64,000 nucleotides of DNA from Acidobacteriota bacterium. GTDB taxonomy: Bacteria > Acidobacteriota > Thermoanaerobaculia > UBA5066. Position numbers and translations under genes: made by a program. The DNA lies in contig RHKY01000005.1 of assembly GCA_008363385.1 (NCBI GenBank), positions 18,254-82,253 on the forward strand. Direction: 5' to 3'. Of the stretch, positions 19,657 through 59,752 are shown piece after piece (positions within the stretch are counted from its first letter, which is position 1; the number at the start of each line of letters is the position of its first letter). Under the pieces are notes generated by a model. That model was not told the origin of the DNA. It made no database searches and worked only from the letters and a program-made list of their open reading frames with translations.

Positions 19657-19890
19657 TCAGAGCTCTTCGGGGACCGGGAAGCGGCCCGTGCCGCGGCAGC
19701 GGAGGCACCTCTGCTGCTCGACGGTCCGGACCTCGATCAGCCCCGTCCCGTGGCAGCCGGGGCAGTCGGTCCCGCCGTGCGTGGCGCCGCTGCCGCGGCA
19801 GAGGCCGCAGGCCGTCTCCTCGCCCTCCCTCGTGCAGCGCAGCTCGATCCACCCCTTGCCGCCACAGTCGGGGCACGCGTCCTTCGTCAC
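19657..19890 (-). CDS. Small stand-alone DnaJ-type zinc-finger protein (4 x CxxCxGxG)
   Basis: 77-aa product MTKDACPDCGGKGWIELRCTREGEETACGLCRGSGATHGGTDCPGCHGTGLIEVRTVEQQRCLRCRGTGRFPVPEEL. Its GTG start overlaps the protease TGA stop (GTGA). The longer upstream part of ORF 19657-20286 is Arg/Gly-rich junk. Confidence 0.65.
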   Translation of the reverse strand: MTKDACPDCGGKGWIELRCTREGEETACGLCRGSGATHGGTDCPGCHGTGLIEVRTVEQQRCLRCRGTGRFPVPEEL

Positions 19891-20366
19891 GGCGGCACCT
19901 CCTCTCCCTCCACCCATCCGAGGACCTCTTCGACCGCGCGGGGGACCGCGGCCTCGAGCTCGGGGCTGAGCCCCTCGCGGATCGTCGAGAGGTCGCGCGC
20001 CTCGGCGGCGAGGACGCGGACCGACGCCGGGAGGTCGTAGCCGAGCCGGTGTCCCAGCGCGAGCGCCGTCGCGAGGTCGAGCTGGTGCGACCCGCCGAGC
20101 GTCCGGCCGAGCGACGCCTCCTCGACCGGGACCTCCGAGAGCGACCCGGGCGGCCGCGCGCCGGTCGACACGACGTCGACGATCAGGGCGCGCTCGAACC
20201 CCGTCAGGAGGTCGAGCAGCCGGAAGCCGGCCACGGCCGCCGACTCCACCGCGACGTCGGGCCGGTCGCCGAGCCGCCCGGCGCACTCGGCGGCCACGCG
20301 CGGCCCGAACCCGTCGTCCGAGACGAGGTCGTTGCCGAGCCCGAGGACGAGCGCCCGTCCCGCCAC
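19887..20366 (-). CDS. [NiFe] hydrogenase maturation endopeptidase (HycI/HoxW/FrhD family)
   Basis: LVLGLGNDLVSDDGFGPRV N-terminal motif and GGSHQLDL. It lies immediately downstream of a large subunit that carries a C-terminal extension. Confidence 0.85.
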   Translation of the reverse strand: MAGRALVLGLGNDLVSDDGFGPRVAAECAGRLGDRPDVAVESAAVAGFRLLDLLTGFERALIVDVVSTGARPPGSLSEVPVEEASLGRTLGGSHQLDLATALALGHRLGYDLPASVRVLAAEARDLSTIREGLSPELEAAVPRAVEEVLGWVEGEEVPP

Positions 20367-20380
20367 CTCGGTCCTCCCCC

Positions 20381-21862
20381 TCAGCAGAACCGGCGGACGG
20401 TCTCCCGGAGGGTCCCGTCCGCCTCGTGGATCGAGATCTCCATCGGCATCTCGCCGTACGCCGCGTGCGTGGCGCAGCCGAAGCAGGGGTCGTAGGCGCG
20501 GAAGGCCATCTCGATCCGGTTCAGCGTGGCGTCGCGGACCTCGGTCCCCTTCCGGATCAGCGCCTCGGCGACCTTCTTGATCGACATGGAGATCGCGGCG
20601 TTGTTGTTCGTCGTCCCGACGATCAGGTTCGCCTCGGTGACGAACCCCTTCTCGTCCGTCCTGTAGTGGTGGGTCAGGATCCCCCGCGGGGCCTCGACGA
20701 TCCCGACCCCCTCGCCGACGATCCCCGTCGGCGGGACGTGGATCCGGTCGGAGGTGATCTCGTCGTCCTGGGCCTGCCGGAGGACCGCCTCGCAGGCGAA
20801 GACCATCTCGACGACGCGGGCCCAGTGGATCGCGAGCGTCGCGTGGACCGGGGCCTTCCCGCTCGCGTCCCCCGTCAGCGTCGAGTAGAGCCTCTCGTAC
20901 TCCTCCTGCGCGAGCGGCGTCGCCATGCCGGAGCTGACGTTCAGCCGGCTCATCGGCGTGGCGCGGTAGACCCCCGAGTCGGCCCCTTCCACGAGCCCCT
21001 TCCAGCCGACGGCCTTCAGGTACGGGACCTTCAGGTAGCTGTACGGCAGGACCGCCTCGGCGACGTGGGAGAGGTAGTCCTTCGGCTCGTACCGGCAGAG
21101 CTCGGCCCCCTCCGGGTCGACGACCCGGACGGTCCCGTCGTAGAAGGTCACCTTCCCGTCCGGGTCGGTCAGGCCGATGGAGTGCGTCCGGAGCGAGTAG
21201 GCCTCCGAGAGGACCATGTCGACGTAGGCGGGGTTCGAGAGGACGACGTCCTGGAAGACCTGGATCGTCGTCTTCCCGAACTCGACCATCTCCCGGCCGA
21301 TCTTGACCAGCTCCTGCTGCTCCTCCTTCGTCACCCGCTTGGACATCCCGCCCGGGAGGGCGGTCACCGGGTGGAGCGCCTTGCCGCCGATGATCTGGAC
21401 GACGCGCTGGCCGCGCGAGCGCTGCCTGACGACCTCGGCCCCCAGCTCGAGCCCCACCTTGGCGACGACGCCGAGGATGTTCCGCATCCCCTTCGGCGCG
21501 TCGGGGCCGACGACGAAGTCGGGCCCGCCGAGGGCGTAGAAGTGCGTCGTGTGGTCGCCGGCGTAGAAGCCGTTGTAGAGGAGCTCGCGGAGCTTCCGCG
21601 CGGCGGGCGGCGGGGTGACGCCGTAGACGGCGTCGGCCGCCTTCACCGAGGCCATGTGGTGCGCCTCGGGGCAGACGCCGCAGATCCGGGTCGTGATCCG
21701 GGGCATCTCCTCGACGGGCCGACCCTTGCAGAAGACCTCGAAGCCGCGCAGCTCGGGGACCTGGAAGTAGGCGTTCGCCAGGTTCCCCTCGTCGTCGAGG
21801 AAGAGGTGGATCTTCCCGTGCCCCTCCAGGCGCGTGACCGGGTCGATCGTGATCGATCTCAT
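20381..21862 (-). CDS. mvhA: [NiFe] hydrogenase large subunit, group 3 (MvhA-like)
   Basis: N-terminal RICGVCPEAH and C-terminal DPCFGCATH nickel-binding motifs, followed by a cleavable extension. The ATG overlaps the small-subunit stop (ATGA). Sequence upstream of MRSITIDPVTRLEGHG in ORF 20381-22561 is junk. Confidence 0.9.
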   Translation of the reverse strand: MRSITIDPVTRLEGHGKIHLFLDDEGNLANAYFQVPELRGFEVFCKGRPVEEMPRITTRICGVCPEAHHMASVKAADAVYGVTPPPAARKLRELLYNGFYAGDHTTHFYALGGPDFVVGPDAPKGMRNILGVVAKVGLELGAEVVRQRSRGQRVVQIIGGKALHPVTALPGGMSKRVTKEEQQELVKIGREMVEFGKTTIQVFQDVVLSNPAYVDMVLSEAYSLRTHSIGLTDPDGKVTFYDGTVRVVDPEGAELCRYEPKDYLSHVAEAVLPYSYLKVPYLKAVGWKGLVEGADSGVYRATPMSRLNVSSGMATPLAQEEYERLYSTLTGDASGKAPVHATLAIHWARVVEMVFACEAVLRQAQDDEITSDRIHVPPTGIVGEGVGIVEAPRGILTHHYRTDEKGFVTEANLIVGTTNNNAAISMSIKKVAEALIRKGTEVRDATLNRIEMAFRAYDPCFGCATHAAYGEMPMEISIHEADGTLRETVRRFC

Positions 21863-22848
21863 GCTCCGACCTGCTTTCGTCTCAGGAGCGAGCCCGGGAG
21901 GCTGAACCGGTAGAAGGTGCCGGCCAGGTCGGGGATCCCGGCGACGATCCGGTCGACCTCCTCGGGGTCGGTCGAGTCGATGACGCCCGCGATGGCCGAG
22001 GCCATCTTGGCCCCCTGGTCGGGGACGCCGAGCGGGGGGCCGTAGCAGCCGCGGCACGGGACGCCGGCCTTCACGCACTGGGCGCCGCAGCCGCCGCGCG
22101 TGGCCGGGCCCATGCAGAGCAGCCCCTGCTCCATCAGGCAGACCTCCGGGTCGGGGACGACCTCGTGCGGCCGGACGAAGCCGCGGATCTTCTTGACGTC
22201 CCGCTTCCGCGGGCACTCCTCGCAGCAGGCGCGCTCGCTCGCGCCGAGGACCGTCCCCTTCGGCGGCAGGGGCTTCCCGTGGGCGAGGACGTCCATGACG
22301 GCGTCCACCACCGCCACGATCTGCGACGGCTGCGGCGGGCAGCCCGGGACGAGGTAGTCGACGTCGACGACCTGCGGGAGCGTCCGGACCGTGTTCCACA
22401 GGCGCGGCAGCTCGAGCGTCCCCTCGGGGACCTCGTGCCGGGTCGCGGGCCGGACCTTCTCCGCGTTCGACGTGGAGGGCGAGTCCTCGTAGACGTACCG
22501 GAGGATCTCGTCGAGGGAGGTGAGGTTGGCCAGGCCCGGGATGCACCCGTCCGAGGCGCACGACCCGAAGGCGCAGAGGAGCTTCGACTTCCGCCGGAGG
22601 AGGAGCGCCAGCTCGTGGTTCTCCGAGCTCCGGATCGCGCCGTTGAACAGGGTCAGCGTGATCGCCCCGTCCGGCAGCGCCTCGACGTCCTCGTACTTGA
22701 AGTCGAGGACGCAGGGCCAGAAGACGACGTCGAAGAAGTCGGCGATCTCGAGGACCTTCAGCTCCGTGTCGAGGACCGCGATCTCGCAGCCCCCGCAGGA
22801 GGCCGCCCAGTAGAGCGCGAGCTTGGGCTTGGGCGTGAGCTTCTCCAT
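21859..22848 (-). CDS. mvhG: [NiFe] hydrogenase small subunit, group 3 (MvhG-like)
   Basis: ALYWAASCGGCEIAVLD...FGSCASDGCIPG and further Cys clusters, typical of cytoplasmic group 3 small subunits. No Tat signal. Confidence 0.85.
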   Translation of the reverse strand: MEKLTPKPKLALYWAASCGGCEIAVLDTELKVLEIADFFDVVFWPCVLDFKYEDVEALPDGAITLTLFNGAIRSSENHELALLLRRKSKLLCAFGSCASDGCIPGLANLTSLDEILRYVYEDSPSTSNAEKVRPATRHEVPEGTLELPRLWNTVRTLPQVVDVDYLVPGCPPQPSQIVAVVDAVMDVLAHGKPLPPKGTVLGASERACCEECPRKRDVKKIRGFVRPHEVVPDPEVCLMEQGLLCMGPATRGGCGAQCVKAGVPCRGCYGPPLGVPDQGAKMASAIAGVIDSTDPEEVDRIVAGIPDLAGTFYRFSLPGSLLRRKQVGA

Positions 22849-22855
22849 CGTCCCC

Positions 22856-23329
22856 TCACACGAGAGCGGGCGCCCCGGCGGCCGGCGCGAGCTCGGCCTC
22901 GGCCGCCTCGCGGTCGAAGGCGTGCTCGCCCAGGACGAGGGGGCCGAGCCTCCGGACCTCGTCCGTGAACTCGGCGACCAGCTCGCCGAACCGCTTCCCC
23001 TCCGAGGCCGAGACCCACTCGAGGCGGACCCGCCGCGGGTCGACCCCCAGGGCCTCCACGAGCCGCCGGGTGAGCGCCATCCGGCGGAGGCACTTGCTGT
23101 TGCCGTCAGCGTAGTGGCAGTCCCCCGGGTGGCAGCCGCAGACGAGGACGCCGTCCGCGCCCCGCGCGAGCGCCTCGAGGACGAAGCCCGGGTCGACGCG
23201 GCCGGAGCACATCACGCGGATCGGGCGGAGGTTCGGCGGGTACTTGATCCGCGCCGTCCCCGCCAGGTCGGCGCCCGTGTAGCTGCACCAGTTGCAGAGG
23301 AACCCGACGAGCTTCGGCTCGAAGGTCAT
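22856..23329 (-). CDS. mvhD: MvhD/FlpD-type [2Fe-2S] hydrogenase delta subunit
   Basis: MTFEPKLVGFLCNWCSYTGADLAG...IRVMCSGRVDP...VLVCGCHPGDCHY. The ATG overlaps the upstream stop (ATGA). Only the last 157 codons of ORF 22856-26998 look like protein. Confidence 0.85.
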   Translation of the reverse strand: MTFEPKLVGFLCNWCSYTGADLAGTARIKYPPNLRPIRVMCSGRVDPGFVLEALARGADGVLVCGCHPGDCHYADGNSKCLRRMALTRRLVEALGVDPRRVRLEWVSASEGKRFGELVAEFTDEVRRLGPLVLGEHAFDREAAEAELAPAAGAPALV

Positions 23330-25080
23330 GCCAGCACCCCCGCGATCTCGGCGCGGACCTGCTCGTCGGAGAAGTGGAGGGCCTTCACGGCCCCGCCCGG
23401 GCAGCCGGCCGCGCAGGTGCCGCACGCCTTGCAGAGGGCCGGGTTGACCCGCGACACCTTCTTCTCGCCGTCGTAGGAGATCGCCCCGTACGGGCAGAGG
23501 TCGTTGCAGAGGCGGCAGCCGCTGCAGACGGCCTCGTCCACCACCGCGAACGGGGCGTCCATCTCGACCTCGCCGCGGATCATGAGCGAGAGGGCCTGCG
23601 CGGCCGCGGCGCCCGCCTGGGCCACGGTGTCCGGGATGTCCTTCGGCCCCTGGCAGGCCCCGGCGATGAAGACGCCGTCCGTCGTCGTGGAGACCGGGCC
23701 GAGCTTGGGGTGCCGCTCGATGAACCACCCGTCCGCGCCCGTGGAGATCCCGAAGCGGCGCCCCGTCTCCTTGGCGTCCCCCTGCGCCTCCAGCGCGGTG
23801 CAGAGGATCACCATGTCGACGGGGACCTCCCGGAAGCGGCCCGCGAGCGTGTCCTCGCACCGGACGACGAGCGTCCCCTCCTGGTCCCCCCGCTCGGCGG
23901 CGACGACCTCGGCTCCCTTGCCCCGGATGACGTTGACCCCCTCGGTCAGGATCCGCTGGAAGAACTCCTCGTACCCCTTCCCGAAGGCGCGCAGGTCGAT
24001 GTAGAGCTGGTAGACCTGCGCCGCGGTCTTCTCCCTCACGAGGTGGGCGAACTTCAGCGCGTACATGCAGCAGACGCGGCTGCAGTACGGGTGGTGGTTC
24101 TCGTCGCGGCTCCCGATGCAGTGGAGGATCGCGATCGAGCGGGGCTCCTTCCCGTCCGACCGGAGGATCCGGCCGTTCGTGGAGCCGGCGGCATTGTTCA
24201 TCCGCTCGAACTCCATCGACGTGATGACGTCCGGGAGGCGGCCGTAGCCGTACGGCTTCAGCGGCGCGGGGTCGAGGTCCCTGAAGCCCGTCGCCAGGAC
24301 GACGGTCCCGGCGTCGACGACCTCGACCCGGCCCGCGTCCTCGTGGTCGATGCACTCCTTCGGGCAGACCTTCGCGCAGAGCTTGCAGCCGCCGGTCCGG
24401 AAGTGGACGCAGAGCTCGGGGTCGATCCGCGGCACGTTGGGGACCGCCTGGCGGAACGGGACGGAGATCGCGGCGTTCGGCCCGAGGGCGATCTCGGCGT
24501 GGACCACGTCGCGCCCGCCCATCTCCTCCATCCGGATGTGCCCCGTGGGGCAGAGGGCCGCGCAGGCCCCGCAGAGGATGCAGGCGTCGGCCTCCTCGTC
24601 GAACGGGGTCGTGACGACGCGGGAGGGGCCGCGCGACGTGAAGCCGAGGGCCTGCGCGCCGACGATCTCGTCGCAGACGCGGACGCAGAGGCCGCAGAGG
24701 ATGCAGGTGTCGGTCCCGGTCCCCCAGCGCGGCGTCTCGACGCCGAGCTTCCTCGCCAGCTCCGTGAGGACCGGCATCGGCGCGCAGCGGCTCATCAGCA
24801 TCTCGAGGTTCAGCCGCCGGGCGGCGAGGACGCGCGGCGTGCGCGTCCTGACCTCGAGACCGTCCTCGGCCGGGTAGTTGCACGACGTGACGATCCGCGT
24901 CCGCTTCCTCCGGTCCCTCACCTCGACGCAGCAGAGGCGGCAGGCGGCGTAGGGCGTGACGTACCGGTAGTAGCAGAGGGTCGGGATCTCGATCCCGAGC
25001 GCGGAGGCCGCCTCGAGCAGGTAGCTCCCCTCCTCCACCCGGGTCTCGATCCCGTCGATCGTGATGCGGACTTCTGCCAT
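23326..25080 (-). CDS. Fusion protein: HoxU/NuoG-N-terminal-like [2Fe-2S]+2x[4Fe-4S] domain :: C-terminal half of HdrA
   Basis: The N-terminus RITIDG...LCYY...ACRLCCVEV...SC, plus CILCGLCVRVC and CILCGACAALCP, resembles HoxU/NuoG/HydA N-termini. From AISVPFRQAVP onward it is colinear with the second half of HdrA: ILHCIGSRD...YCSRVCCMY, DLRAFGKGYEEF, DGVFIAGACQGPKDIPD, and a C-terminal CSGCRLCNDLCP...CKACGTCAAGCP. Confidence 0.85.
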   Translation of the reverse strand: MAEVRITIDGIETRVEEGSYLLEAASALGIEIPTLCYYRYVTPYAACRLCCVEVRDRRKRTRIVTSCNYPAEDGLEVRTRTPRVLAARRLNLEMLMSRCAPMPVLTELARKLGVETPRWGTGTDTCILCGLCVRVCDEIVGAQALGFTSRGPSRVVTTPFDEEADACILCGACAALCPTGHIRMEEMGGRDVVHAEIALGPNAAISVPFRQAVPNVPRIDPELCVHFRTGGCKLCAKVCPKECIDHEDAGRVEVVDAGTVVLATGFRDLDPAPLKPYGYGRLPDVITSMEFERMNNAAGSTNGRILRSDGKEPRSIAILHCIGSRDENHHPYCSRVCCMYALKFAHLVREKTAAQVYQLYIDLRAFGKGYEEFFQRILTEGVNVIRGKGAEVVAAERGDQEGTLVVRCEDTLAGRFREVPVDMVILCTALEAQGDAKETGRRFGISTGADGWFIERHPKLGPVSTTTDGVFIAGACQGPKDIPDTVAQAGAAAAQALSLMIRGEVEMDAPFAVVDEAVCSGCRLCNDLCPYGAISYDGEKKVSRVNPALCKACGTCAAGCPGGAVKALHFSDEQVRAEIAGVLA

Positions 25081-25092
25081 CTCCTCCGCTCC

Positions 25093-27102
25093 TCAGGCGG
25101 CCGCGGGCGCCTTCTCCCGCTCCTTCAGCGGCTTCCACCGCTGCCGGGCGCCCTCCTGGACCTGTCCCGCCTCGTCCCTCCTCACCCTCACGATCGCGTC
25201 GAACCGGCAGACCTGGTAGCAGGCGTCGCACCGGATGCAGCGGTCCTGGTCGACGACCTGCAGGGCCCTCGGCCCCCCGCTGATCGCGCCGGTGGGGCAG
25301 GACTTCGCGCAGAGCGCGTCGCCGACGCACGCCTCGTTGACCGCGTAGGAGACGAGCTCCTTGCAGACGCCCGCGGGGCACCGCTTCTCGAGGATGTGGG
25401 CGTCGTACTCCTGCCGGAAGTAGCGGATCGTCGACAGGACGGGGTTCGGGGCGCTGCCGCCCAGCTGGCAGAGGCTCGTGTCGACGAGGACGCCGCCGAT
25501 CTCCGCGAGGAGGTCGACGTCGCCCGGGCGCCCCTCCCCGCGGGTGATCCGGTCCAGCACGTCGTGGAGCATCCGGAGGCCCTCGCGGCAAGGGAGGCAC
25601 TTCCCGCAGGACTCCTCGATCAGGAAGTGGATGAAGTACTTCGCCACGTCGACCATGCAGGAGTCCTGGTCCATGACGATCATCCCGCCCGAGCCCATCA
25701 TCGAGCCGGCCTCGGTGAGCGCGTCGAAGTCGACCGGGAGGTCGAGGAGGCTCTCGGCCTTCTCGTCCTCGCGGATCCGCCCGCCGGCCACCATCGAGTC
25801 GTGGACCGCCTCGTCCCGCGTCTCGACGATGAGCGTCCCGCCCGACGGGCCGCCCGTCTGAACGGCCTTGAACTTCTTCCGCCCCGGGACGCCGCCGCCG
25901 ATGTCGTAGAGGATCTCCCGCAGCGTGATCCCCATCGGGACCTCGACGAGGCCCGTGTTCTGGATCTTCCCGGTCAGCGCGAAGAGCTTCGTCCCCTTCG
26001 ACCCCTCGGTCCCGATCGAGGCGTACCAGTCCGCCCCCTTCTCGACGATGAGGGGGACGTTGGCCCACGTCTCGACGTTGTTCAGGTTCGAGGGGCGGTC
26101 CCAGAGCCCGTGCTCGACCGTGTGGACGTACTTGGCGCGGGGCTCGCCGATCTTCCCCTCGAGCGAGGCCATGAGCGCGGTCGACTCCCCGCAGACGAAG
26201 GCCCCGCCCCCGCGGCTGACGTCGACGTCGAAGTCGAAGCCGGTCCCGAGGACGTCCTTGCCGAGGAGGCCCCGCTCCCGGGCGGCCTCGATGGCGATCC
26301 AGAGGTTCCTCACGGCCAGCCGGTACTCGTCGCGGACGTAGACGAACCCCTCGTGCGAGCCGATCGCGAACGCCCCGATCAGCATCCCCTCGATGACCGA
26401 GTGCGGGTTCCCCTCCAGGACGGCGCGGTCCATGAAGGCGCCGGGGTCCCCCTCGTCGGCGTTGCAGATGACGTACTTCGGCTCGCCCTTCGCCTTCCGG
26501 CACGACTCCCACTTCCGTCCCGCCGGGAAGCCGCCCCCGCCCCGCCCGCGCAGGCCCGCCCTCTTGACCGTCTCGATGACCTCCTCGGGCGCCATCGTCG
26601 AGAGCGCCTTGGCGGCCGCGGCGTACCCGCCGAGCGCGAGGTAGTCGTCGAGGCAGGTCGGGTCCATCAGCCGGTTCTTCCCGAGGATCAGGCGGAGCTG
26701 CTTGCGGTAGAACGGGACGTCCTCCTCCCGCTCCACCTTCTTCCCGGTCGCCGGGTCCTTGTAGAGGAGCTTCCCGACGACCTGACCGTGCTTGACCGTC
26801 TGCTCGACGATCAGCGGCACGTCCTCCGGCCGGATCCGCTGGTAGAAGACCCCGCTCGGCTGGATGCCGGCGAGCGGCCCCCGCTCGCAGAAGCCGCGGC
26901 AGCCCGTCAGCTTCAGGCGGACGACGTCCTGGAGCTTCTCGGCCTCGATCCGCTCCCGGAACGCCGCGGCCACGTCCTCGCACCCGCAGGCCAGGCACCC
27001 GGTGCCCGCGCAGAGGTGGATCGCGGTGACGTTCTCGTCGACCTCGGAGAGGAGCCGGGCCCGCTCGGCCGCGAGCGCCTCGGGGCTCCCGATCCGGCTC
27101 AC
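25093..27102 (-). CDS. NAD(P)H-binding FMN/Fe-S subunit, NuoF/HoxF/HydB (Bfu-type) with N-terminal 2Fe-2S and C-terminal 2x[4Fe-4S] domains
   Basis: GRGGGGFPAGRKW, ICNADEGDPGAF and ESCGKCLPCREG motifs. An N-terminal thioredoxin-like Cys cluster (CAGTGCLACGC...CRGFC) is present. The C-terminal end has CAKSCPTGAI...CIRCDACYQVC. The GTG start overlaps the NuoE-like stop (GTGA). Confidence 0.9.
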   Translation of the reverse strand: MSRIGSPEALAAERARLLSEVDENVTAIHLCAGTGCLACGCEDVAAAFRERIEAEKLQDVVRLKLTGCRGFCERGPLAGIQPSGVFYQRIRPEDVPLIVEQTVKHGQVVGKLLYKDPATGKKVEREEDVPFYRKQLRLILGKNRLMDPTCLDDYLALGGYAAAAKALSTMAPEEVIETVKRAGLRGRGGGGFPAGRKWESCRKAKGEPKYVICNADEGDPGAFMDRAVLEGNPHSVIEGMLIGAFAIGSHEGFVYVRDEYRLAVRNLWIAIEAARERGLLGKDVLGTGFDFDVDVSRGGGAFVCGESTALMASLEGKIGEPRAKYVHTVEHGLWDRPSNLNNVETWANVPLIVEKGADWYASIGTEGSKGTKLFALTGKIQNTGLVEVPMGITLREILYDIGGGVPGRKKFKAVQTGGPSGGTLIVETRDEAVHDSMVAGGRIREDEKAESLLDLPVDFDALTEAGSMMGSGGMIVMDQDSCMVDVAKYFIHFLIEESCGKCLPCREGLRMLHDVLDRITRGEGRPGDVDLLAEIGGVLVDTSLCQLGGSAPNPVLSTIRYFRQEYDAHILEKRCPAGVCKELVSYAVNEACVGDALCAKSCPTGAISGGPRALQVVDQDRCIRCDACYQVCRFDAIVRVRRDEAGQVQEGARQRWKPLKEREKAPAAA

Positions 27103-27635
27103 TTCCGCCTCCCGACGACCGCCCGCGCCTTCGGGGGCGCCGCGAGGACCTTCTCCACCATCTTCTCGACGTCCGTGACCGTCAGGTGCCCGTAGTACCG
27201 CTCGTCGGCGACCACCACCGGCCCGAGCGCGCAGGCGCCGACGCAGTTGACCGTCTCCAGCGTGAACTGCCGGTCCTCGGTCGTCCGCCCGCGCTCGACG
27301 TGGAGGTCGCGCTCGAGCTTCTCGAGGATGCTGCGCGAGTTCCGGACGTGGCAGGCGGTCCCCGTGCAGACACAGAGGCGGTGCTTCCCCTTCGGCTCCA
27401 GGCTGAACGCCTTGTAGAAGGTCGCGACCCCGTAGACCTGCGAGAGCGCGAGGTCCATCCGCCTCGCGATCCGCTTCAGCGCCGCGGCGGGGAGGTAGGA
27501 GAGCTCCTCCTGGACCTCCTGCAGGATCATGATGAGGGCGGTCGGCCGCGCCTCGTACGAGGCGACGATCTCGTCCACCCGCGAGAGCGAGACCTCCGCC
27601 TCGCGGGGCGGCTCGGCGACGGCGGCGTCACTCAT
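27099..27635 (-). CDS. NuoE/HoxE/HydC-like thioredoxin-fold [2Fe-2S] subunit
   Basis: LMILQEVQEELSYLP...ATFYKAF...CVCTGTACHV...VNCVGACALGPVV. Confidence 0.9.
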   Translation of the reverse strand: MSDAAVAEPPREAEVSLSRVDEIVASYEARPTALIMILQEVQEELSYLPAAALKRIARRMDLALSQVYGVATFYKAFSLEPKGKHRLCVCTGTACHVRNSRSILEKLERDLHVERGRTTEDRQFTLETVNCVGACALGPVVVADERYYGHLTVTDVEKMVEKVLAAPPKARAVVGRRK

Positions 27636-28557
27636 GGGCGGCCTCCTCCCCCTCCGGCAGGCCCGGCCGGCTGACGCGGTGCGCGTGGCGCTGCCCCGGC
27701 GCGAGCGAGCGCGGCGCCCCCTCCTTGTAGACCCGGCCCCCGAGTCTCATCCGGCGGCGCGCGGGGACGGCCCGGGAGGGGCAGGCGTCGTAGCAGGCCC
27801 CGCAGCCGTTGCAGCGCTTCACGTCGACGTACCGCGGGCGGACCCGGATCGTCGCCTGGAAGCTGCCGACGTACCCCTCGACCTTCTCGACCTCCGCGCC
27901 CGTGACGAGGCGGATCTTCGGGTGCTGCGCGACGGCGACCATCTTGGGCGTCAGGATGCAGGCGGCGCAGTCGAGGGTCGGGAACGTCTTGTCGAAGCTG
28001 ACCATGTGGCCGCCGATCGAGGTCTCCCGCTCGACGAGGACCACGTCGAAGCCGGCGTCGGCCATCTGGAGCGCCGCCTCGATCCCGGCGATCCCGCCCC
28101 CGACGACGAGCGCCCGCCGCCGGATCGCGACCCGCCGCATCTCCAGCGGCTCCTGCAGCGCGACGCGCCGCACCGCGGCGGCGACCATCGCGCGCGCCTT
28201 CTCCGTGGCGGCGGGCCCCTTCTCCGAGACCCACGAGACCTGCTCGCGGACGTTCGCCATCGCGAAGAGGTACCGGTTCAGCCCCGCCTTCTCGACGGCC
28301 TTGCGGAACGTCGGCTCGTGCATCAGCGGGCTGCACGCGGCGACGACGACGCGGGTGAGGCCCAGCTCCCGGACGTCGCGCTGGATCAGCTCCTGCCCAG
28401 GGTCGCTGCACATGAACTTGTAGTGGCGCGCCACGACGACGCCCGGCGCGGCGGCCGAGGCGGCCGCCACGGCCTCCACGTCGACGGTCTTGGCGATGTT
28501 CGTCCCGCAGTGGCAGACGTAGACGCCGATCCGCACCCCGCCGTTCCCGTCGCTCAC
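27628..28557 (-). CDS. N-terminal half of heterodisulfide reductase subunit A (HdrA)
   Basis: RIGVYVCHCGTNIAKTVDVEAV...KFMCSDPGQELIQ...VVVAACSP..HEPTFR, the FAD motif ALVVGGGIAGIEAAL, DKTFPTLDCAACILTPKM, and finally RPRYVDVKRCNGCGACYDACP. It is colinear with the first ~300 aa of HdrA as I recall it from methanogens. The GTG start overlaps the hdrB stop (GTGA). The 3' end overlaps the nuoE-like start by 8 nt. Confidence 0.85.
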   Translation of the reverse strand: MSDGNGGVRIGVYVCHCGTNIAKTVDVEAVAAASAAAPGVVVARHYKFMCSDPGQELIQRDVRELGLTRVVVAACSPLMHEPTFRKAVEKAGLNRYLFAMANVREQVSWVSEKGPAATEKARAMVAAAVRRVALQEPLEMRRVAIRRRALVVGGGIAGIEAALQMADAGFDVVLVERETSIGGHMVSFDKTFPTLDCAACILTPKMVAVAQHPKIRLVTGAEVEKVEGYVGSFQATIRVRPRYVDVKRCNGCGACYDACPSRAVPARRRMRLGGRVYKEGAPRSLAPGQRHAHRVSRPGLPEGEEAAHE

Positions 28558-29432
28558 GCGTGCACCTCCGCGGCGGACCTGCCGAGCGCCGTGCCGTCCA
28601 CGAGGAGCGCGTCGAGGAGCATCTCCTCGGCCGTGAAGCCGAGCGCCAGCCCGACGAGCTGGGTGAAGTAGACGACCGGCAGGTGGAAGTCCGTCCCGTG
28701 GACCCGGTTGATCCGCCCCTGGTACGCCTCCAGGTTCAGCTGGCACATCGGGCAGGTGGTGGCGAGCACCTCCGCGCCGTTCTGGACCGCCGCCGTCAGG
28801 ATGTCCCGGTTCAGCTTCAGGGCGACCGCCTCGCTCGTCGTCATCAGCATCCCGCCGCAGCAGCGGAGCTTCGCGGGGAAGGGGACCGGCTCGGCGCCGA
28901 GCGCCGAGAGGAGGTTGTCGAGCTGCTGCGGGTCCTCGCGGTCGTCGTACGTCCCCTTCGGGCGGACGAGCTGGCAGCCGTAGTAGGGCGCCACGCGCAG
29001 CCCCCCGAGCGAGCGGACCGCCCGCTCCCGGACCCGCTCGACGCCGTAATAGGTCGTCAGGACGAAGAGCGGGTGGAGGACCTCGAGCCCGGCCTGGTAC
29101 GAGAGCCCGGCGGCGCCGAGGACCTGGTTGATGTCCTTCTTGCGCGCCTCGTCCCAGCGCATGTGCCGGTTCACCTTCGAGAGGATCGTGAAGCAGGAGC
29201 TGCACGGGGCGCAGACGTCGAGCCCCATCCTCTCCGCGTACGCCAGGTTGCGCGCCGAGAGGGCGTAGGCCGTCAGCTTGTTCATGGCGATGTAGGACGT
29301 GGCCCCGCAGCAGTTCCAGTCCTCGATCTCCTTGAGGCCGATCCCGAGGCGCTCGAAGACGAGCCGCACCGAGACGTCGTACGGGCGGCCGGTCGCCTCG
29401 AGGCTGCAGCCGGGGTAGTAGGCGTACTCCAT
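28554..29432 (-). CDS. hdrB: Heterodisulfide reductase subunit B-like (two CCG domains)
   Basis: MEYAYYPGCSLE...EDWNCCGATS and YYGCQ...KLRCCGGMLM...TCPMCQ. Confidence 0.85.
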   Translation of the reverse strand: MEYAYYPGCSLEATGRPYDVSVRLVFERLGIGLKEIEDWNCCGATSYIAMNKLTAYALSARNLAYAERMGLDVCAPCSSCFTILSKVNRHMRWDEARKKDINQVLGAAGLSYQAGLEVLHPLFVLTTYYGVERVRERAVRSLGGLRVAPYYGCQLVRPKGTYDDREDPQQLDNLLSALGAEPVPFPAKLRCCGGMLMTTSEAVALKLNRDILTAAVQNGAEVLATTCPMCQLNLEAYQGRINRVHGTDFHLPVVYFTQLVGLALGFTAEEMLLDALLVDGTALGRSAAEVHA

Positions 29433-30028
29433 CAGAGCCCCCCCATGGACTGCGCCTTGTCGATGATGGCCCGCACCTCGTGGATCCTCTTCACGCGCGC
29501 GGGCAGGAGCGCGAGGCGCTTCTTCCGGAGGAGGCCGAGCGCGAAGCGGTGCAGGTCGGGCGAGAGGAGCTTCGCGGGCCCGGCGGCGAGGTAGTACTTG
29601 AACCCGAGCCAGATCTCCCAGTTCCGCCCCCAGTCGCGGACGTTCCGGGTGAAGGCGTCGGCCAGCGCGTGGACCGGGAAGCTCCGGGGGAAGACCTTCT
29701 TCTTCTCGGCCACCCGCTTCAGCGCGTAGAGGCTGTCCGTGACCCGGATCCCGGCCGGGCACCGGACGGCGCAGGCGTAGCACGACGCGCACATCCAGAT
29801 CGCCCGGCTCCGCAGGATCTCCTCGAGGAAGCCCGCCCGGAAGAGCGCCACGACCTGTCGCGGCGTGATGTCCATCGCCGGGGCGACGGGGCACGACCCG
29901 GTGCAGGTGCCGCACTGGATGCAGTTCAGGATCCGGTAGCCGTCGGGGAAGGTGCCGACCTGGTCCCAGAAGGCGGCGCGCAGCTCCGCCTCGCGCCGGG
30001 GAAGGGACGCCGCGGGGGGTGACGTCAT
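29432..30028 (-). CDS. hdrC: Heterodisulfide reductase subunit C-like (2x[4Fe-4S])
   Basis: CIQCGTCTGSCPV and CASCYACAVRCPAGI. The stop shares one nt with the hdrB ATG (TGATG). The upstream part of ORF 29432-31534 is junk. Confidence 0.8.
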   Translation of the reverse strand: MTSPPAASLPRREAELRAAFWDQVGTFPDGYRILNCIQCGTCTGSCPVAPAMDITPRQVVALFRAGFLEEILRSRAIWMCASCYACAVRCPAGIRVTDSLYALKRVAEKKKVFPRSFPVHALADAFTRNVRDWGRNWEIWLGFKYYLAAGPAKLLSPDLHRFALGLLRKKRLALLPARVKRIHEVRAIIDKAQSMGGL

Positions 30029-30177: not shown

Positions 30178-31611
30178 TTACCGGCCGGCGTCCCGCGGCG
30201 GGCGCGCGTCCCGCCCGGACGGAGGGGGAGATTCGCCCCCGCCGGGGGCATTTCGCCCCCGTTCGCGGAGCCCGTACTCCCGGACCTTCCGCGAGAGGGT
30301 CTTCCGGTCGATCCCGAGGAGCGCCGCGGCGCGCCCGACGCGCCAGCCGGTCATCTCCAGCACCTTCCGGACGTGCTGCGCCTCGAGCCCCGACAGGCTC
30401 AGGTCGTCGCGGTCGGCCCCTGCCGAAGGCGCCTCCGCGCCCCGGCGCGGCAGCGGGAGGTCCTCCGGGCCGATCTCGGGCCCGCGCGCGAGGACCAGCG
30501 CGCGCTCGAGCGCGTTCTCCAGCTCGCGCACGTTCCCGGGCCACGCCTCCTCGACGAGGCGCGAGACCGCGGCCTCCCCGAGCGTGCGCGGCTGGAATCC
30601 CTTCCGCCGGACGAGGCGCTCGACGAGCGCCCGGGCCAGCGCCGGGATCTCCTCCCTCCGTTCCCTCAGCGGCGGGACCGGGACGACGACGACGCTCAGC
30701 CGGTAGAAGAGGTCCTCCCGGAACCGGCCGGCCGCGATGAGCGCCCGTAGGTCGCGGTTCGTCGCGGCCAGGATCCTCACGTCCACCCTCACGGTGGCGT
30801 TCCCGCCGACGGGCGTGATCTCCCGCTCCTGCAGGACGCGCAGGAGCTTGGCCTGCAGGGCCAGGTCGAGGTTCCCCAGCTCGTCGAGGAAGAGCGACCC
30901 GCCGTCGGCCTGGACGAACCGGCCGGGCCGCTCGGCCGTCGCGCCCGTGAACGCCCCCTTCACGTGCCCGAACAGCTCGGCCTCGCAGAGCGTCTCGACG
31001 AGGGCGCCGCAGTCGACGACGAGGAACGGCCCGTCGCGGCGCGGGCTCAGCCGGTGGATCGCCCTGGCCACCAGCTCCTTGCCCGTGCCGCTCTCGCCGA
31101 GGACCAGGACGGTGGACTGGGTCGGGGCGACCCGCTCGATCAGCTCGCGGACGCGCTGCATCGACGGGCTGTCGCCGAGGAGCTCGTCCTCCTCCGCCCC
31201 GCGGAGCCCCTTCCGGAGCGCGTCGTTCTCCGCGACGAGCCGCCGTTTCTCGAGCGCCCGGGCCACGGCGAGGCGCAGCGAGTCGACGTCGAACGGCTTC
31301 GGCAGGTAGTCGCAGGCGCCCAGGCGCATGCAGTCGACGGCCGACGGCACGCTCGAGTAGCCCGTGACCACGATCGCCTCGGCCTGGGGGCAGAGCGTCC
31401 GGAGCCTCCGGAGGAGCTCCTCCCCCCCCATCCCCGGCATGCGGAGGTCGAGGACGACGACGTCGGGCCGCCGCGCCTGGACGAGCTTGAGCGCCTCGAA
31501 CGCGTCCCGGGCCGTCTCCACCTCGTGGCCGCACCGCTCGAGCGCCTTCCGGCAGGAGTCGCGGATCACCTCCTCGTCGTCCACGACGAGGACCCTCGCG
31601 GGGGCGCTCAC
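30178..31611 (-). CDS. Sigma-54-dependent response regulator (NtrC family: REC + AAA+ + Fis-type HTH)
   Basis: Receiver VLVVDDEEVIR...VVLDLRMPGMGG...KP. AAA+ motifs VLVLGESGTGKE, the GAFTGA loop, LFLDELG, RFREDLFYRL. C-terminal HTH AAALLGIDRKTLSRKVREYGL. The GTG start overlaps the kinase stop (GTGA). Confidence 0.9.
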   Translation of the reverse strand: MSAPARVLVVDDEEVIRDSCRKALERCGHEVETARDAFEALKLVQARRPDVVVLDLRMPGMGGEELLRRLRTLCPQAEAIVVTGYSSVPSAVDCMRLGACDYLPKPFDVDSLRLAVARALEKRRLVAENDALRKGLRGAEEDELLGDSPSMQRVRELIERVAPTQSTVLVLGESGTGKELVARAIHRLSPRRDGPFLVVDCGALVETLCEAELFGHVKGAFTGATAERPGRFVQADGGSLFLDELGNLDLALQAKLLRVLQEREITPVGGNATVRVDVRILAATNRDLRALIAAGRFREDLFYRLSVVVVPVPPLRERREEIPALARALVERLVRRKGFQPRTLGEAAVSRLVEEAWPGNVRELENALERALVLARGPEIGPEDLPLPRRGAEAPSAGADRDDLSLSGLEAQHVRKVLEMTGWRVGRAAALLGIDRKTLSRKVREYGLRERGRNAPGGGESPPPSGRDARPPRDAGR

Positions 31612-32741: not shown

Positions 32742-32847
32742 CTGCCACCGAGGATAGGAACTTCGCTCCGGAGCGGCAAGCGTCCCCGGGGCCGTCCGAC
32801 CGGGACTAGCCTCGGGGAGCAGGGCGCAGGGCCTCGTCTCTCCGGGA

Positions 32848-32867
32848 ACGGCGCGTCGCGGCGCCGT
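32848..32867 (-). terminator. Weak hairpin downstream of the ELWxxDGT gene
   Basis: ACGGCGC-gtcgcg-GCGCCGT, a 7-bp GC stem about 60 nt past the stop at 32929. There is no clear U-tract. Confidence 0.25.
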
Positions 32868-32928
32868 CTTCCCGGCGTTCGACGCGACCGTCAGGGGAGG
32901 CAGAGACCGAGGGAGGAGCGCCCGTCGC

Positions 32929-40524: not shown

Positions 40525-40537
40525 AGAGGTGAGCCCG

Positions 40538-41080
40538 ATGTCGCACCCCGATCCCGCAGTCGCCCCCCCGGCCGAGCGGCCGTTCTGGAACCCCTACGTG
40601 GCGGGCGTCGTCCTCGGCCTCGTCCTCCTCTCCTCGTTCCTCGCCATGGGGTGGGGCCTCGGCTCCTCCAGCGCCGCCACGCGCCTGGCCGTCGGGGCGG
40701 CCCACGTCGTCGTGCCCGGCCCCGTCGAGCGGAACGCCTACTTCTCGCAGTACGTCGGGGGCGGGCGGAACGCGCTCGACGACTGGATGGTCTTCGAGGT
40801 GCTCGGCGTCTTCCTCGGAGGGGCTCTCGCGGCCTACTCGGGCGGGCGGATGAAGCTGGGCTGGGAGAAGGGGCCGACCACGTCGAAGGGGACCCGCCTC
40901 CTCTACGCGATCGCGGGCGGCGTCCTGATGGGCTTCGCCGCTCGCCTCGCCCGCGGCTGCACGTCGGGCCAGGCCCTGACGGGCGGCGCGGTCCTCGGCC
41001 TCGGCTCGTGGGTCTTCATGATGGCGGTCTTCGCCGGCGGCTACCTCGTCGCCCCGTTCGTGAAGAGGCAGTGGCGATGA
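40538..41080 (+). CDS. YeeE/YedE-family sulfur-compound transporter half-protein
   Basis: ARLARGCTSGQALTGG signature and four hydrophobic helices. A GAAGAGGTGA RBS-like stretch precedes ATG 40538. An in-frame GTG at 40529 is also possible. Confidence 0.8.
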   Translation: MSHPDPAVAPPAERPFWNPYVAGVVLGLVLLSSFLAMGWGLGSSSAATRLAVGAAHVVVPGPVERNAYFSQYVGGGRNALDDWMVFEVLGVFLGGALAAYSGGRMKLGWEKGPTTSKGTRLLYAIAGGVLMGFAARLARGCTSGQALTGGAVLGLGSWVFMMAVFAGGYLVAPFVKRQWR

Positions 41081-58751: not shown

Positions 58752-58782
58752 GCGCGTCCGCCGCGCGGTCTACCATCGGGCG

Positions 58783-59685: not shown

Positions 59686-59752
59686 GGGACGGGCGTCCCT
59701 CCGGCCCCCGGCTCGCTACAATCGGGAAAACCGAGGACACGGAGGTCGAACG

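Follow-up and report, generated by a model that had tools for sequence, protein, structure and literature searches.

An operon in the window (the whole 64,000-nucleotide stretch of Acidobacteriota DNA analysed here) probably joins two distinct electron-bifurcating machines into a hard-wired series. Its ten genes lie on the minus strand in the order hdrC-hdrB-hdrA(N)-nuoE-nuoF-[Fe-S module::hdrA(C)]-mvhD-[NiFe] small-large-protease. At the gene level, hdrA is broken past the first cysteine motif of its inserted ferredoxin domain, bfuC and bfuB (nuoE-like and nuoF-like by Pfam) occupy the gap, and bfuA is fused in-frame to the C-terminal half. This split-HdrA layout is real, not an artefact, and is conserved in ~40 uncultured bacterial species; a description of a split-HdrA/Bfu architecture was not found in the literature we searched. 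The open reading frames agree with the positions given in a preliminary description of this DNA, and the features are as follows.

29432..30028, minus strand: hdrC, 198 aa, 2x[4Fe-4S] ferredoxin-like heterodisulfide reductase subunit (Pfam Fer4_8/Fer4_17)
28554..29441, minus strand: hdrB, 295 aa, disulfide-reducing catalytic subunit (Pfam CCG, two stretches, E = 2e-26)
27628..28557, minus strand: N-terminal half of hdrA (HdrA-N), 309 aa (alignment to solved HdrA)
27778..27813, minus strand: Cys motif 1 (CNGCGACYDACP) of the split 2x[4Fe-4S] inserted ferredoxin domain, forming its first half; HdrA-N residues 249-260
27631..27777, minus strand: C-terminal extension of HdrA-N, 48 aa, SRAVPARRRMRLGGRVYKEG..., conserved in homologues
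27099..27635, minus strand: nuoE/bfuC-like gene, 178 aa, thioredoxin-like [2Fe-2S] subunit (Pfam 2Fe-2S_thioredx, E = 2.5e-49)
25093..27102, minus strand: nuoF/bfuB-like gene, 669 aa (Pfam and PDB matches)
23326..25080, minus strand: fusion gene (BfuA module::HdrA-C), 584 aa (phmmer against the PDB)
24541..25080, minus strand: BfuA/HoxU-type module, fusion residues 1-180, [2Fe-2S]+2x[4Fe-4S]
24880-24975, minus strand: [2Fe-2S] of the BfuA module
24673-24705, minus strand: Cys motif A of the BfuA module
24547-24582, minus strand: Cys motif B of the BfuA module
24499..24540, minus strand: linker TGHIRMEEMGGRDV... that connects the HdrA-derived strand to BfuA motif B; homologues keep it as TGHIxMEE..R..H.E
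23326..24498, minus strand: C-terminal half of hdrA (HdrA-C), fusion residues ~195-584 (HdrA alignment)
24361..24411, minus strand: Cys motif 2 (CVHFRTGGCKLCAKVCP) of the split inserted ferredoxin domain, forming its second half; fusion residues 224-240
22856..23329, minus strand: mvhD, 157 aa, [2Fe-2S] adaptor between hydrogenase and HdrA (Pfam FlpD, E = 2e-53)
21859..22848, minus strand: [NiFe]-hydrogenase small subunit, 329 aa, of MvhG-like length (Pfam Oxidored_q6)
20381..21862, minus strand: [NiFe]-hydrogenase large subunit, 493 aa (Pfam NiFeSe_Hases)
19887..20366, minus strand: hydrogenase maturation protease (Pfam HycI)

Several neighbouring genes overlap: hdrA-N starts with GTG in a 4-nt overlap with the hdrB stop, the nuoE ATG and the hdrA-N stop overlap by 8 nt, and the mvhD start shares an ATGA with the stop of the fusion gene. 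The gene order is invariant across ~35 loci, with hdrC as the first gene and the maturation protease as the last. The closest PDB match of the hydrogenase large subunit is MvhA (5odc_F, E = 4e-112), followed by NiFe-HydL (7t2r_D, E = 3e-106) and HoxH (5xf9_D).

Pairwise alignment to solved HdrA bears out the earlier proposal that the two fragments are colinear, complementary halves. Residues 9-261 of HdrA-N match residues 2-255 of HdrA 8rvv_A (phmmer against the PDB, E = 6e-98), and residues ~195-582 of the fusion match ~262-641 (E = 1e-109), so that the HdrA sequence picks up in the 584-aa product ~7 residues past the N-fragment match and continues to the HdrA C terminus. Pfam agrees that the halves complement each other. 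Neither half repeats the other: the only overlap in these PDB alignments is between the generic CxxCxxCxxxCP of BfuA (residues 167-178) and HdrA motif 1. HdrA-N contains the N-terminal [4Fe-4S] domain, the GxGxxG FAD-binding Rossmann part, the FPTLDC197AAC200 segment (C197 and C200 are invariant among homologues), Cys motif 1 and a tail. HdrA-C contains the strand ...LGPNAAISVPFRQAVP (its ...VPFRQAVP is fusion residues 207-214), Cys motif 2, the remainder of the FAD domain including an HCxGSRDx5CSRVCCMYxxK cluster/Lys motif, in which K343 and the cluster cysteines are invariant, and the C-terminal 2x[4Fe-4S] ferredoxin domain. All four cysteines of motif 1 are kept in 119 of 120 HdrA-N homologues, and the C-x7-C-x2-C-x3-C pattern of motif 2 in 120 of 120 fusion homologues. 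Together with the alignment and the recurrence of the split in ~40 species genomes, these eight cysteines place the break inside the inserted ferredoxin domain, as first suggested. The GxGxxG and C-terminal ferredoxin motifs are likewise conserved, and cofactor motifs maintained in both HdrA-N and HdrA-C indicate that both halves retain function. The distance between the halves needs a correction: the fusion gene does start 2.5 kb past the hdrA-N stop, but its HdrA-like part lies 3.1 kb downstream.

The 309-aa product was initially thought to end just after motif 1; instead, the 48-aa tail follows, which has no counterpart in canonical HdrA. The tail could suggest that an error of sequencing or assembly, or a frameshift that recently made a pseudogene of a normal hdrA, produced the split, since it is rich in Arg, Pro and Gly and resembles out-of-frame translation of 73% GC DNA. 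Yet its amino-acid sequence is conserved across phyla, with SRPxPxxRRMxLGxRVYKEG... kept in 118 of 119 homologues, and the best 120 HdrA-N homologues are all 278-377 aa long. A 301-nt junction is moreover identical base-for-base in three independent Logan assemblies from different sequencing runs, which differ by SNPs elsewhere (0, 10 and 6 mismatches across 2930 bp), the same split is present in 41 GTDB species representatives, and 2.5 kb of functional nuoE and nuoF, coupled by start/stop overlaps, separates the halves. An artefactual origin is thus refuted. The extension probably acts as an arm reaching towards NuoE/BfuC for tethering or docking.

The fusion of HdrA-C to a HoxU/NuoG-type Fe-S module, also noted in the preliminary description, is in-frame and conserved in architecture: fusion residues 4-189 match BfuA of 9mqx (9mqx_A residues 5-190; phmmer, E = 1e-35), and motifs A and B are present in 120 of 120 homologues. 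The module is a type-2 BfuA, with a [2Fe-2S] and 2x[4Fe-4S] and without the His-ligated cluster. The neighbouring subunits had been called a diaphorase. They are NuoE/NuoF-like, but not of the plain Hox type, since the best PDB matches of the NuoF-like protein are BfuB/HydB chains (9mqx_B, E = 5e-220; 7t2r_B, E = 2e-218; and 8a6t_B). This protein carries an N-terminal [2Fe-2S] domain, the FMN/NADH site, the NuoF [4Fe-4S] and a C-terminal 2x[4Fe-4S] domain. Of the ligands of the B2 cluster in A. mobile HydB, H525 and three Cys out of four (C438, C531 and C536) are conserved; the remaining ligand, C476, is replaced by Thr, as it is in 9mqx_B. Judged by sequence, the two proteins are of the bifurcating BfuC/BfuB (HydC/HydB) type, with a flavoprotein as in Bfu/HydABC.

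A search for homologues with the same split and fusion recovered more than 120 full-length homologues of each protein, and the split and gene order in ~40 species genomes, among them Thermoanaerobaculaceae, Eisenbacteria, Zixibacteria, Ignavibacteria, KSB1 and Calditrichaeota. Every locus of sufficient sequence length has both HdrA halves. In some relatives the pieces are covalently joined: in locus L089 the module is linked on both sides, as HdrA-N::NuoE (423 aa) and BfuA::HdrA-C::MvhD (706 aa), with a ~20-aa linker at the position of the HdrA-N tail running straight into NuoE, and P0250 carries motif 1, the BfuA module and motif 2 on a single chain. In another locus (L043) the two hdrA pieces are adjacent without nuoEF between them, so the Bfu core is not always encoded in the hdrA gap.

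We consider it likely that the operon encodes one soluble multi-enzyme complex, in which a complete BfuABC is inserted in the ferredoxin-domain loop of HdrA, the HdrA halves are reassembled and two bifurcations run in series. HdrA-N and the fusion would associate non-covalently into one HdrA with an FAD domain drawn from both chains. To the inserted 2x[4Fe-4S] ferredoxin domain one chain would contribute motif 1 and the other motif 2, and each cluster would then be ligated by both polypeptides. Such co-folding in trans is supported by the division of the FAD (TrxR-like) fold across two chains, by the constant co-occurrence of the halves, by relatives such as L089 and P0250, with the module covalently joined at one or both ends, and by AlphaFold2 (AF2) models of the lone pieces, which are least confident at the break.

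In these models, for which each piece was predicted alone, pLDDT falls below 50 at HdrA-N residues 248-262, including Cys motif 1, to 29-42 at fusion residues 198-217, the strand flanking Cys motif 2, and to ~35 at fusion residues 457-510. The confidence of either piece is thus lowest precisely at the break, although missing cofactors may also explain low pLDDT. The BfuA module is predicted at 85-94, and at 85-97 together with the N-terminal domain; it superposes on 9mqx_A (2.9 Å over 190 columns) and, as the modelled N-terminal module of the fusion, on HoxU 5xf9_F (TM 0.61 normalised by target), and HdrA chains top the Foldseek search with the fusion model (E = 1e-30). That the BfuA module and N-terminal domain are confident alone would suit a scheme of two separate enzymes in which the HdrA pieces do not reassemble: HdrA-N would be a truncated flavoprotein working with HdrBC, and NuoE, NuoF, the fusion, MvhD and MvhAG would form a Hox-like NAD-linked hydrogenase, with HdrA-C a mere Fe-S scaffold. 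The break does yield two stable, separately translated proteins, and many HdrA-like proteins have reduced domain sets. However, the FAD fold is incomplete in either piece, with GxGxxG in HdrA-N and the flavin-facing Lys and adjacent cluster in the fusion, and the regions of low confidence are those expected to pack on the partner. The co-occurrence of the halves, the conservation of all eight split-domain cysteines and the single-chain and doubly fused relatives also argue against this scheme, which we regard as very improbable.

In the favoured complex, H2 would be oxidised by the Mvh-type [NiFe] hydrogenase and the electrons passed through MvhD to the HdrA FAD. Bifurcation there would send the high-potential electron through HdrC to HdrB and a disulfide, and the low-potential electron through the split ferredoxin domain and BfuA to BfuBC, reducing NAD+ and ferredoxin; this electron path is the least certain part of the proposal. 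In both Hdr and the class II benzoyl-CoA reductase, BCRII, the low-potential electrons leave by the inserted ferredoxin domain (PMC9012536; bioRxiv 10.64898/2026.04.10.717634). The inter-chain version, as the low-potential exit of the HdrA flavin, would be hard-wired to the flavin/Fe-S site of BfuBC by way of the BfuA clusters, and the BfuABC (HydABC-type, NuoEFG-like) NADH/ferredoxin module would sit between the HdrA Cys motifs in protein as well as gene. The wire is consequently not directly beside the HdrA flavin, as had been envisaged, since the inserted domain to which it attaches lies 2-3 clusters from the flavin in solved Hdr complexes. In BCRII the N-terminal bundle of BamG (BfuC) touches BamI (BfuA) (bioRxiv 10.64898/2026.04.10.717634), a contact consistent with BfuC and BfuA both being tethered at one HdrA loop. 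If the scheme is true, the H2 threshold would fall from ~30 Pa to ~1 Pa relative to canonical Mvh-Hdr, by our own arithmetic from textbook potentials.

BCRII, Bam[(BC)2DEFGHI]2 of Geobacter metallireducens (bioRxiv 10.64898/2026.04.10.717634; Bam-Bfu in PMC9304861), is the only described complex that joins HdrA-type and HydBC/Bfu-type bifurcation modules, and shares with the window operon a type-2 BfuA (BamI), an MvhD-like adaptor and an HdrBC-like subunit (HdrB/HdrC in the operon). There, BamI is a separate protein and supplies BamE, a permuted and fused HdrA dimer, on its input side (C-terminal ferredoxin/MvhD); a tungsten enzyme receives the low-potential output, and hydrogenase is absent. 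With BfuA fused on the output side, the window operon would reverse this module order, and the proposed wiring is without precedent in BCRII, the only solved Hdr+Bfu complex. In BCRII itself, the HydBC-like module (BamGHI) confurcates electrons into the HdrA-type module (bioRxiv 10.64898/2026.04.10.717634), and Bfu enzymes are reversible (PMC9304861). HdrA could be reassembled with Bfu in another role, either as an NADH plus reduced ferredoxin confurcating input, alongside or instead of H2, or as a plain, non-bifurcating NAD+ reductase replacing free ferredoxin as acceptor of the low-potential branch. We judge this clearly less likely than two bifurcations in series, while well above the other alternatives. 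Loss of the C476 ligand would fit it, as would HdrA of the ANME-1/HdrL type, where an NfnB-like NAD(P)H module occupies the same position (PMC9012536). Against it, Bfu is joined to what is the output domain in solved complexes, and the NuoF-like protein still has the additional cluster domains at its N and C termini and the His, all typical of bifurcating BfuB. Moreover, electrons at ~-400 mV running backwards through the low-potential branch together with thiol oxidation would yield H2 only at very low pH2.

The other closest known systems share some of these features. MvhAGD-HdrABC of hydrogenotrophic methanogens (group 3c; PDB 5ODC) has in common the MvhA-like large subunit, the small subunit, MvhD, the two-CCG HdrB, HdrC and all HdrA cofactor motifs (N-terminal cluster, C197, FAD, inserted ferredoxin, CCMYxxK and C-terminal ferredoxin). 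Its HdrA is one polypeptide whose inserted domain reduces free ferredoxin, whereas in the window HdrA is two polypeptides with BfuABC inserted at that domain. The ANME-1 HdrA also places a pyridine-nucleotide-linked redox module between the same two Cys motifs (PMC9012536, S8 Fig legend), but as one NfnB-like domain in a single polypeptide rather than a three-subunit Bfu module in a broken gene. NiFe-HydABCSL (NiFe-Bfu) of Acetomicrobium mobile (PDB 7T2R/7T30; PMC9304861) similarly combines a BfuB/BfuC core with a NuoG-like BfuA linking to a [NiFe] hydrogenase. Its BfuA, however, is type 3, with extra clusters, and directly contacts the hydrogenase small subunit, and Hdr is absent; in the window, the type-2 BfuA is fused to HdrA, which lies between hydrogenase and Bfu. 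HoxEFUYH (group 3d NAD-reducing [NiFe]-hydrogenase; PDB 5XF9) likewise has NuoE/NuoF/HoxU-like subunits beside a [NiFe] hydrogenase, but its HoxF has none of the additional BfuB cluster domains, HoxU directly contacts HoxY, and HdrABC and MvhD are missing. The large subunit in the window is nearer MvhA than HoxH.

HdrA is encoded in two pieces within a run of ten tightly packed minus-strand genes (19887-30028), several of which are joined by stop/start codon overlaps. All ten gene assignments are backed by Pfam, and the 64-kb window, whose GC content is about 73%, contains no second, intact hdrA.

Genes of the operon
29432-30028, minus strand: hdrC, 198 aa
28554-29441, minus strand: hdrB, 295 aa
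27628-28557, minus strand: HdrA N-terminal half, 309 aa
27099-27635, minus strand: nuoE-like, 178 aa
25093-27102, minus strand: nuoF-like, 669 aa
23326-25080, minus strand: Fe-S module fused to the HdrA C-terminal half, 584 aa
22856-23329, minus strand: mvhD, 157 aa
21859-22848, minus strand: [NiFe] hydrogenase small subunit, 329 aa
20381-21862, minus strand: [NiFe] hydrogenase large subunit, 493 aa
19887-20366, minus strand: hydrogenase maturation protease, 159 aa

Residues 9-261 of the N-terminal half (HdrA-N) correspond to residues 2-255 of the solved HdrA 8rvv_A (phmmer against the PDB, E = 6e-98), and the alignment ends at the proline of motif 1, the CxxCxxCxxxCP motif that comes first in the inserted ferredoxin domain. 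The 584-aa fusion protein matches the HoxU/NuoG-like subunit BfuA of the Wor-Bfu complex over residues 4-189 (9mqx_A, E = 1e-35) and HdrA from about residue 262 to the C terminus over residues ~195-582 (E = 1e-109, both by phmmer). Its HdrA match formally begins at residue 163, because the second Cys motif of BfuA scores against HdrA motif 1. From the alignment ends of both pieces, the break therefore lies no more than about 7 residues after motif 1, ahead of the second four-Cys motif of the domain (motif 2). Alignment to the two solved structures thus bears out the preliminary description, in which HdrA is split and its C-terminal half fused to an Fe-S module. As that description also held, the fragments are complementary halves, with no HdrA domain duplicated in the alignment to 8rvv_A. 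The phmmer alignment prompted us to consider motif B of BfuA (residues 167-178) as a stand-in for HdrA motif 1. We rejected this double duty because motifs A and B already make up a complete BfuA 2x[4Fe-4S] unit, colinear with 9mqx_A, and also because motif 1 stays strictly conserved in HdrA-N. HdrA-N had been said to end just after motif 1; in fact, 48 more residues follow (27631-27777). This tail resembles an out-of-frame translation of GC-rich DNA, yet it is conserved in homologues as SRPxPxxRRMxLGxRVYKEG..., and in a second clade as ...DLTVLTGAQPMPE, which marks it as a genuine C-terminal extension.

An assembly or frameshift artefact is excluded as the source of the split. The 301-nt junction is identical on three contigs assembled from different sequencing runs, which show 0, 10 and 6 differences from the window over 2.9 kb, and the exact 309-aa protein, together with its 8-nt stop/start overlap with nuoE, occurs on nine contigs, these three among them. 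Among the best 120 homologues of each piece, HdrA-N is 278-377 aa long and the fusion ~585 aa. The same split and fusion recur in other genomes: when a single genome for each GTDB species was scanned with the junction region as query, the complete junction was recovered in 41 species, all of them MAGs, from Thermoanaerobaculaceae, other Acidobacteriota, Eisenbacteria, Zixibacteria, Ignavibacteria, Krumholzibacteriia, KSB1, GN15 and Calditrichaeota. The ten-gene order is kept in about 35 of these 41 loci (tblastn synteny), and gene calls on three long contigs agree with it. The genome nearest to the window is a Thermoanaerobaculaceae MAG with 82% junction identity, and an apparently unsplit close relative (P0169) was set aside, as its 1.6-kb contig offers no informative gene neighbourhood. 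Annotation pipelines miss the two-chain unit, labelling its parts "heterodisulfide reductase subunit A/A2", "FAD-dependent oxidoreductase" or "4Fe-4S dicluster protein".

Between them, the two chains carry the full set of HdrA cofactor motifs, and among the homologues examined each motif is either conserved or invariant. The cysteines of the N-terminal [4Fe-4S] domain (CHCG...C50...C75) and FPTLDC197AAC200, with the Cys197-type ligand that is donated from one HdrA to the other in the dimer, lie in HdrA-N and are invariant in 62 homologues. The motifs of the TrxR-like FAD domain are divided, with GGGIAG in HdrA-N (28084-28101) and HCIGSRDENHHPYCSRVCCMYALK in the fusion (24052-24123). The latter follows the pattern HCxGSRD...CSRVCCMYxxK, which covers the [4Fe-4S] site beside the flavin and the flavin-facing lysine, and this lysine, K343, is invariant in the homologues examined. 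Within the inserted ferredoxin domain, the cysteines of motif 1 (HdrA-N) are kept in 119 of 120 homologues and those of motif 2 (C-x7-C-x2-C-x3-CP, fusion) in all 120. The C-terminal 2x[4Fe-4S] ferredoxin domain, where HdrA takes up electrons from MvhD, has two invariant motifs in the fusion, CSGCRLCNDLCP and CKACGTCAAGCP, and the gene that follows the fusion is mvhD. Taken as a pair, HdrA-N and the fusion thus carry the N-terminal cluster, FAD-domain, inserted and C-terminal ferredoxin signatures that would define an HdrA. The standard fold of 2x[4Fe-4S] ferredoxins ligates each cluster with three cysteines of one motif and a fourth that the other supplies; both clusters would therefore take ligands across HdrA-N and the fusion.

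AlphaFold2 models of the single pieces are consistent with obligate co-folding of the two chains, though not proof of it. Confidence is high in the self-contained parts, namely the BfuA module (pLDDT 85-94) and the N-terminal and Rossmann parts of HdrA-N (85-97). It is poor at fusion residues 198-217 (29-42) and 457-510 (~35) and at HdrA-N residues 248-262 (<50), the regions that need the partner chain. The top structural matches of the fusion model are HdrA chains (E = 1e-30), and superposition of its N-terminal module on 9mqx_A gives 2.9 A for 190 columns.

The NADH-linked module between the HdrA halves has the domain composition of the bifurcating Bfu family. The nuoF-like protein bears a thioredoxin-like [2Fe-2S] domain at its N terminus (Pfam 2Fe-2S_thioredx, residues 26-101), then Complex1_51K and NADH_4Fe-4S, and a C-terminal 2x[4Fe-4S] domain (Fer4 x2, 589-639). 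Its best PDB matches are the bifurcating BfuB/HydB chains 9mqx_B, 7t2r_B and 8a6t_B (E 1e-211 to 1e-220). This architecture corresponds to that described for BfuB, in which an FMN/NADH site and the NuoF [4Fe-4S] are joined by extra [2Fe-2S] (N-terminal) and 2x[4Fe-4S] (C-terminal) domains (PMC9304861), so that we regard the protein as a putative BfuB. The B2 [2Fe-2S] cluster of A. mobile HydB is ligated by C438, C476, H525, C531 and C536, and the B2-cluster histidine is reported to be diagnostic of bifurcating Bfu members (PMC9304861). In this numbering, C438, H525, C531 and C536 are kept here and C476 is replaced by Thr, a substitution also seen in 9mqx_B, the solved BfuB of Wor-Bfu. Compared with 9mqx_B and 7t2r_B, the nuoF-like protein has an insertion of ~25 aa, TRDEAVHDSMVAGGRIREDEKAES (25750-25825, minus strand; residues ~427-451), between the SLBB-like region and the NuoF [4Fe-4S] domain. 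The NuoE-like protein matches its Pfam family at E = 2.5e-49, and residues 1-180 of the fusion carry a [2Fe-2S] motif and two four-Cys motifs, with a single Cys between residues 68 and 125; these two correspond to BfuC and BfuA. The best match of the fused Fe-S module is the type-2 BfuA 9mqx_A. Type-2 BfuA is defined as being without the His-ligated and A5 clusters (PMC9304861), and the fused module, having no His-ligated cluster, is therefore of type 2 in these terms.

The [NiFe] large subunit is nearest to MvhA among PDB matches (5odc_F, E = 4e-112), followed by NiFe-HydL and then HoxH. Together with mvhD, hdrB and hdrC in the operon, this match places the hydrogenase, by homology, in group 3c (Mvh type). 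In group 3d HoxEFUYH enzymes, HoxU adjoins HoxY/HoxH, HoxF is without the extra BfuB domains, and there is no Hdr; in the window operon, by contrast, the NuoF-like protein has BfuB-type extra domains and the HoxU-like module is fused to the C-terminal half of HdrA. The operon thus departs from the HoxEFUYH layout, and its large subunit is nearer MvhA than HoxH in the PDB matches.

Related loci arrange these parts in other ways. In one MAG locus (L043 5692-8407, JAPKYS010000057.1), an HdrA-N gene of 315 aa with its own stop is followed 14 nt on by the fusion gene; neither nuoE nor nuoF separates the halves. In four others, which form one clade (L003, L039, L042 and L044), the gap contains nuoE, a 129-aa thioredoxin-like [2Fe-2S] ferredoxin and a shorter, 609-aa nuoF, as well as DRTGG, CBS-HATPase and PHP regulator-like genes (L042 930-4780); these extra genes resemble an operon cassette put in at the same break point. 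A more distant locus (L089 363-9928) reads etfA-like, hdrC, hdrB, HdrA-N fused to NuoE (423 aa), nuoF, BfuA fused to HdrA-C and MvhD (706 aa) and a 630-aa CCG-domain protein. It has no hydrogenase, its Bfu module is covalently joined at both ends to the HdrA halves, and it may encode an Etf-linked Hdr-Bfu complex. In P0250 (JGI 3300042731), a single chain runs in order from motif 1 through a linker and a BfuA module to motif 2 and the remaining HdrA; its neighbours are an AOR-type tungsten enzyme and a second HdrA-like gene, a Bam/Wor-like context. A search of the representative library also returned forms of ~1090 aa (P0243 and P0247) that join BfuA::HdrA-C to another HdrA-like unit. Taken as a whole, these arrangements show BfuA or the whole BfuABC to be a domain-level insertion in the inter-motif loop of the inserted ferredoxin domain, with the gene breaks secondary to it.

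The position of this insertion bears on how the complex might be wired. The preliminary description placed the diaphorase wire directly next to the HdrA flavin; it joins instead the inserted ferredoxin domain, which in solved Hdr and BCRII (the Bam-Bfu benzoyl-CoA reductase) complexes is the low-potential exit, connected to the flavin via other clusters (PMC9012536; bioRxiv 10.64898/2026.04.10.717634). With this and the 48-residue tail corrected, the observation of a split and fused HdrA is confirmed and its interpretation supported. We tentatively propose, as a possibility somewhat short of even, a hard-wired cascade of two bifurcation sites that differ in mechanism, running from HdrA-FAD to the Bfu FMN and Fe-S centres through a 2x[4Fe-4S] domain in which each cluster is ligated by two chains, so that H2 would simultaneously reduce a disulfide, NAD+ and ferredoxin. 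The Mvh-type hydrogenase would oxidise H2, MvhD would hand its electrons to the HdrA FAD, and the FAD would bifurcate, sending one electron to a disulfide by way of the CCMY cluster, HdrC and HdrB. The other would leave by the N-terminal cluster, cross the split inserted ferredoxin domain to the BfuA clusters, and go on from these to a BfuBC core reducing NAD+ and ferredoxin. Textbook potentials are -140 mV for the disulfide, -320 mV for NAD+ and about -480 mV for ferredoxin. By our own estimate, the mean acceptor potential would be ~-270 mV, compared with ~-310 mV for canonical Mvh-Hdr, and the H2 threshold would fall from roughly 30 Pa for the canonical complex to roughly 1 Pa.

The chief rival reading retains this architecture and makes Bfu either the input, supplied with NADH and reduced ferredoxin, or a plain NAD+ reductase. 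An input role has its precedent in BCRII, where BamI feeds the input side, whereas here the fusion puts BfuA at the output side of HdrA. The chemistry of the Hdr-Bfu-hydrogenase complex is one we still infer. Were the H2-driven cascade correct, it would be the second double-bifurcation enzyme known after BCRII, with the opposite wiring order, and the standard "bacterial Mvh-Hdr" hydrogenase form of Acidobacteriota and of Zixibacteria, Ignavibacteria, Eisenbacteria, KSB1 and Calditrichaeota lineages.

Flavin-based electron bifurcation (FBEB) is central to anaerobic energy conservation. The parts found here are all of known kinds: Mvh-Hdr, the Bfu family, and the combination of Hdr with Bfu in BCRII/Bam-Bfu. 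Relative to known systems, HdrA is split, its ferredoxin domain and FAD site are predicted to be built between chains, and both bifurcation modules occur together with a [NiFe] hydrogenase. According to the BCRII preprint, no complex had previously been reported to contain two FBEB modules, and BCRII is the only enzyme with two bifurcating modules so far described (2026 preprint, bioRxiv 10.64898/2026.04.10.717634); the operon predicts a second, differently wired one, with a two-chain flavin site and a ferredoxin domain whose Fe-S clusters would, unusually, be shared between subunits. The Caldithrix abyssi genome paper describes hdr genes upstream of a group-3c hydrogenase, likewise in Thermoanaerobaculum aquaticum, and makes no mention of the split or of nuoEF (PMC5317091); in the open-access literature, we found no description of a split HdrA or a BfuA::HdrA fusion. 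An NfnB-like insertion occupies the same inserted-ferredoxin loop in ANME-1 HdrA (PMC9012536). NAD(P)H modules are thus shown to dock repeatedly at this loop, as NfnB-like domains in ANME archaea and as the whole Bfu here and in the related Etf- and AOR-linked clusters. The split-HdrA operon is common in uncultured anaerobes from sediments, peat and groundwater, and it offers a concrete hypothesis for the role of bacterial group-3c (Mvh-Hdr-like) hydrogenases outside methanogens. The arrangement is genuinely relevant to research on electron bifurcation and on hydrogenases.

Several features flank the operon. Directly after the hydrogenase protease gene, and slightly overlapping it, a small ORF (19657-19917, minus strand) encodes four CxxCxGxG DnaJ-type zinc-finger repeats. 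A 105-aa homologue (Pfam DnaJ_CXXCXGXG, weak) occupies the equivalent place in a Zixibacteria locus (L006 17649-17966), and the ORF may be a conserved accessory or maturation factor for the operon. Immediately upstream of hdrC lie genes for a sigma-54 enhancer-binding response regulator and a histidine kinase (30178-32960, minus strand). The pair is also upstream of the operon in an Eisenbacteria locus (L007 2653-5105), and its presence in both suggests sigma-54-dependent regulation. Upstream of the regulator genes, 32929-35745 (minus strand) encodes a 938-aa protein with many tandem "ELW.SDGT..GT"-type repeats. In the 2-kb composition profile, AT skew is unusually negative at 40001-42000 (-0.32) and at 58001-60000 (-0.17).
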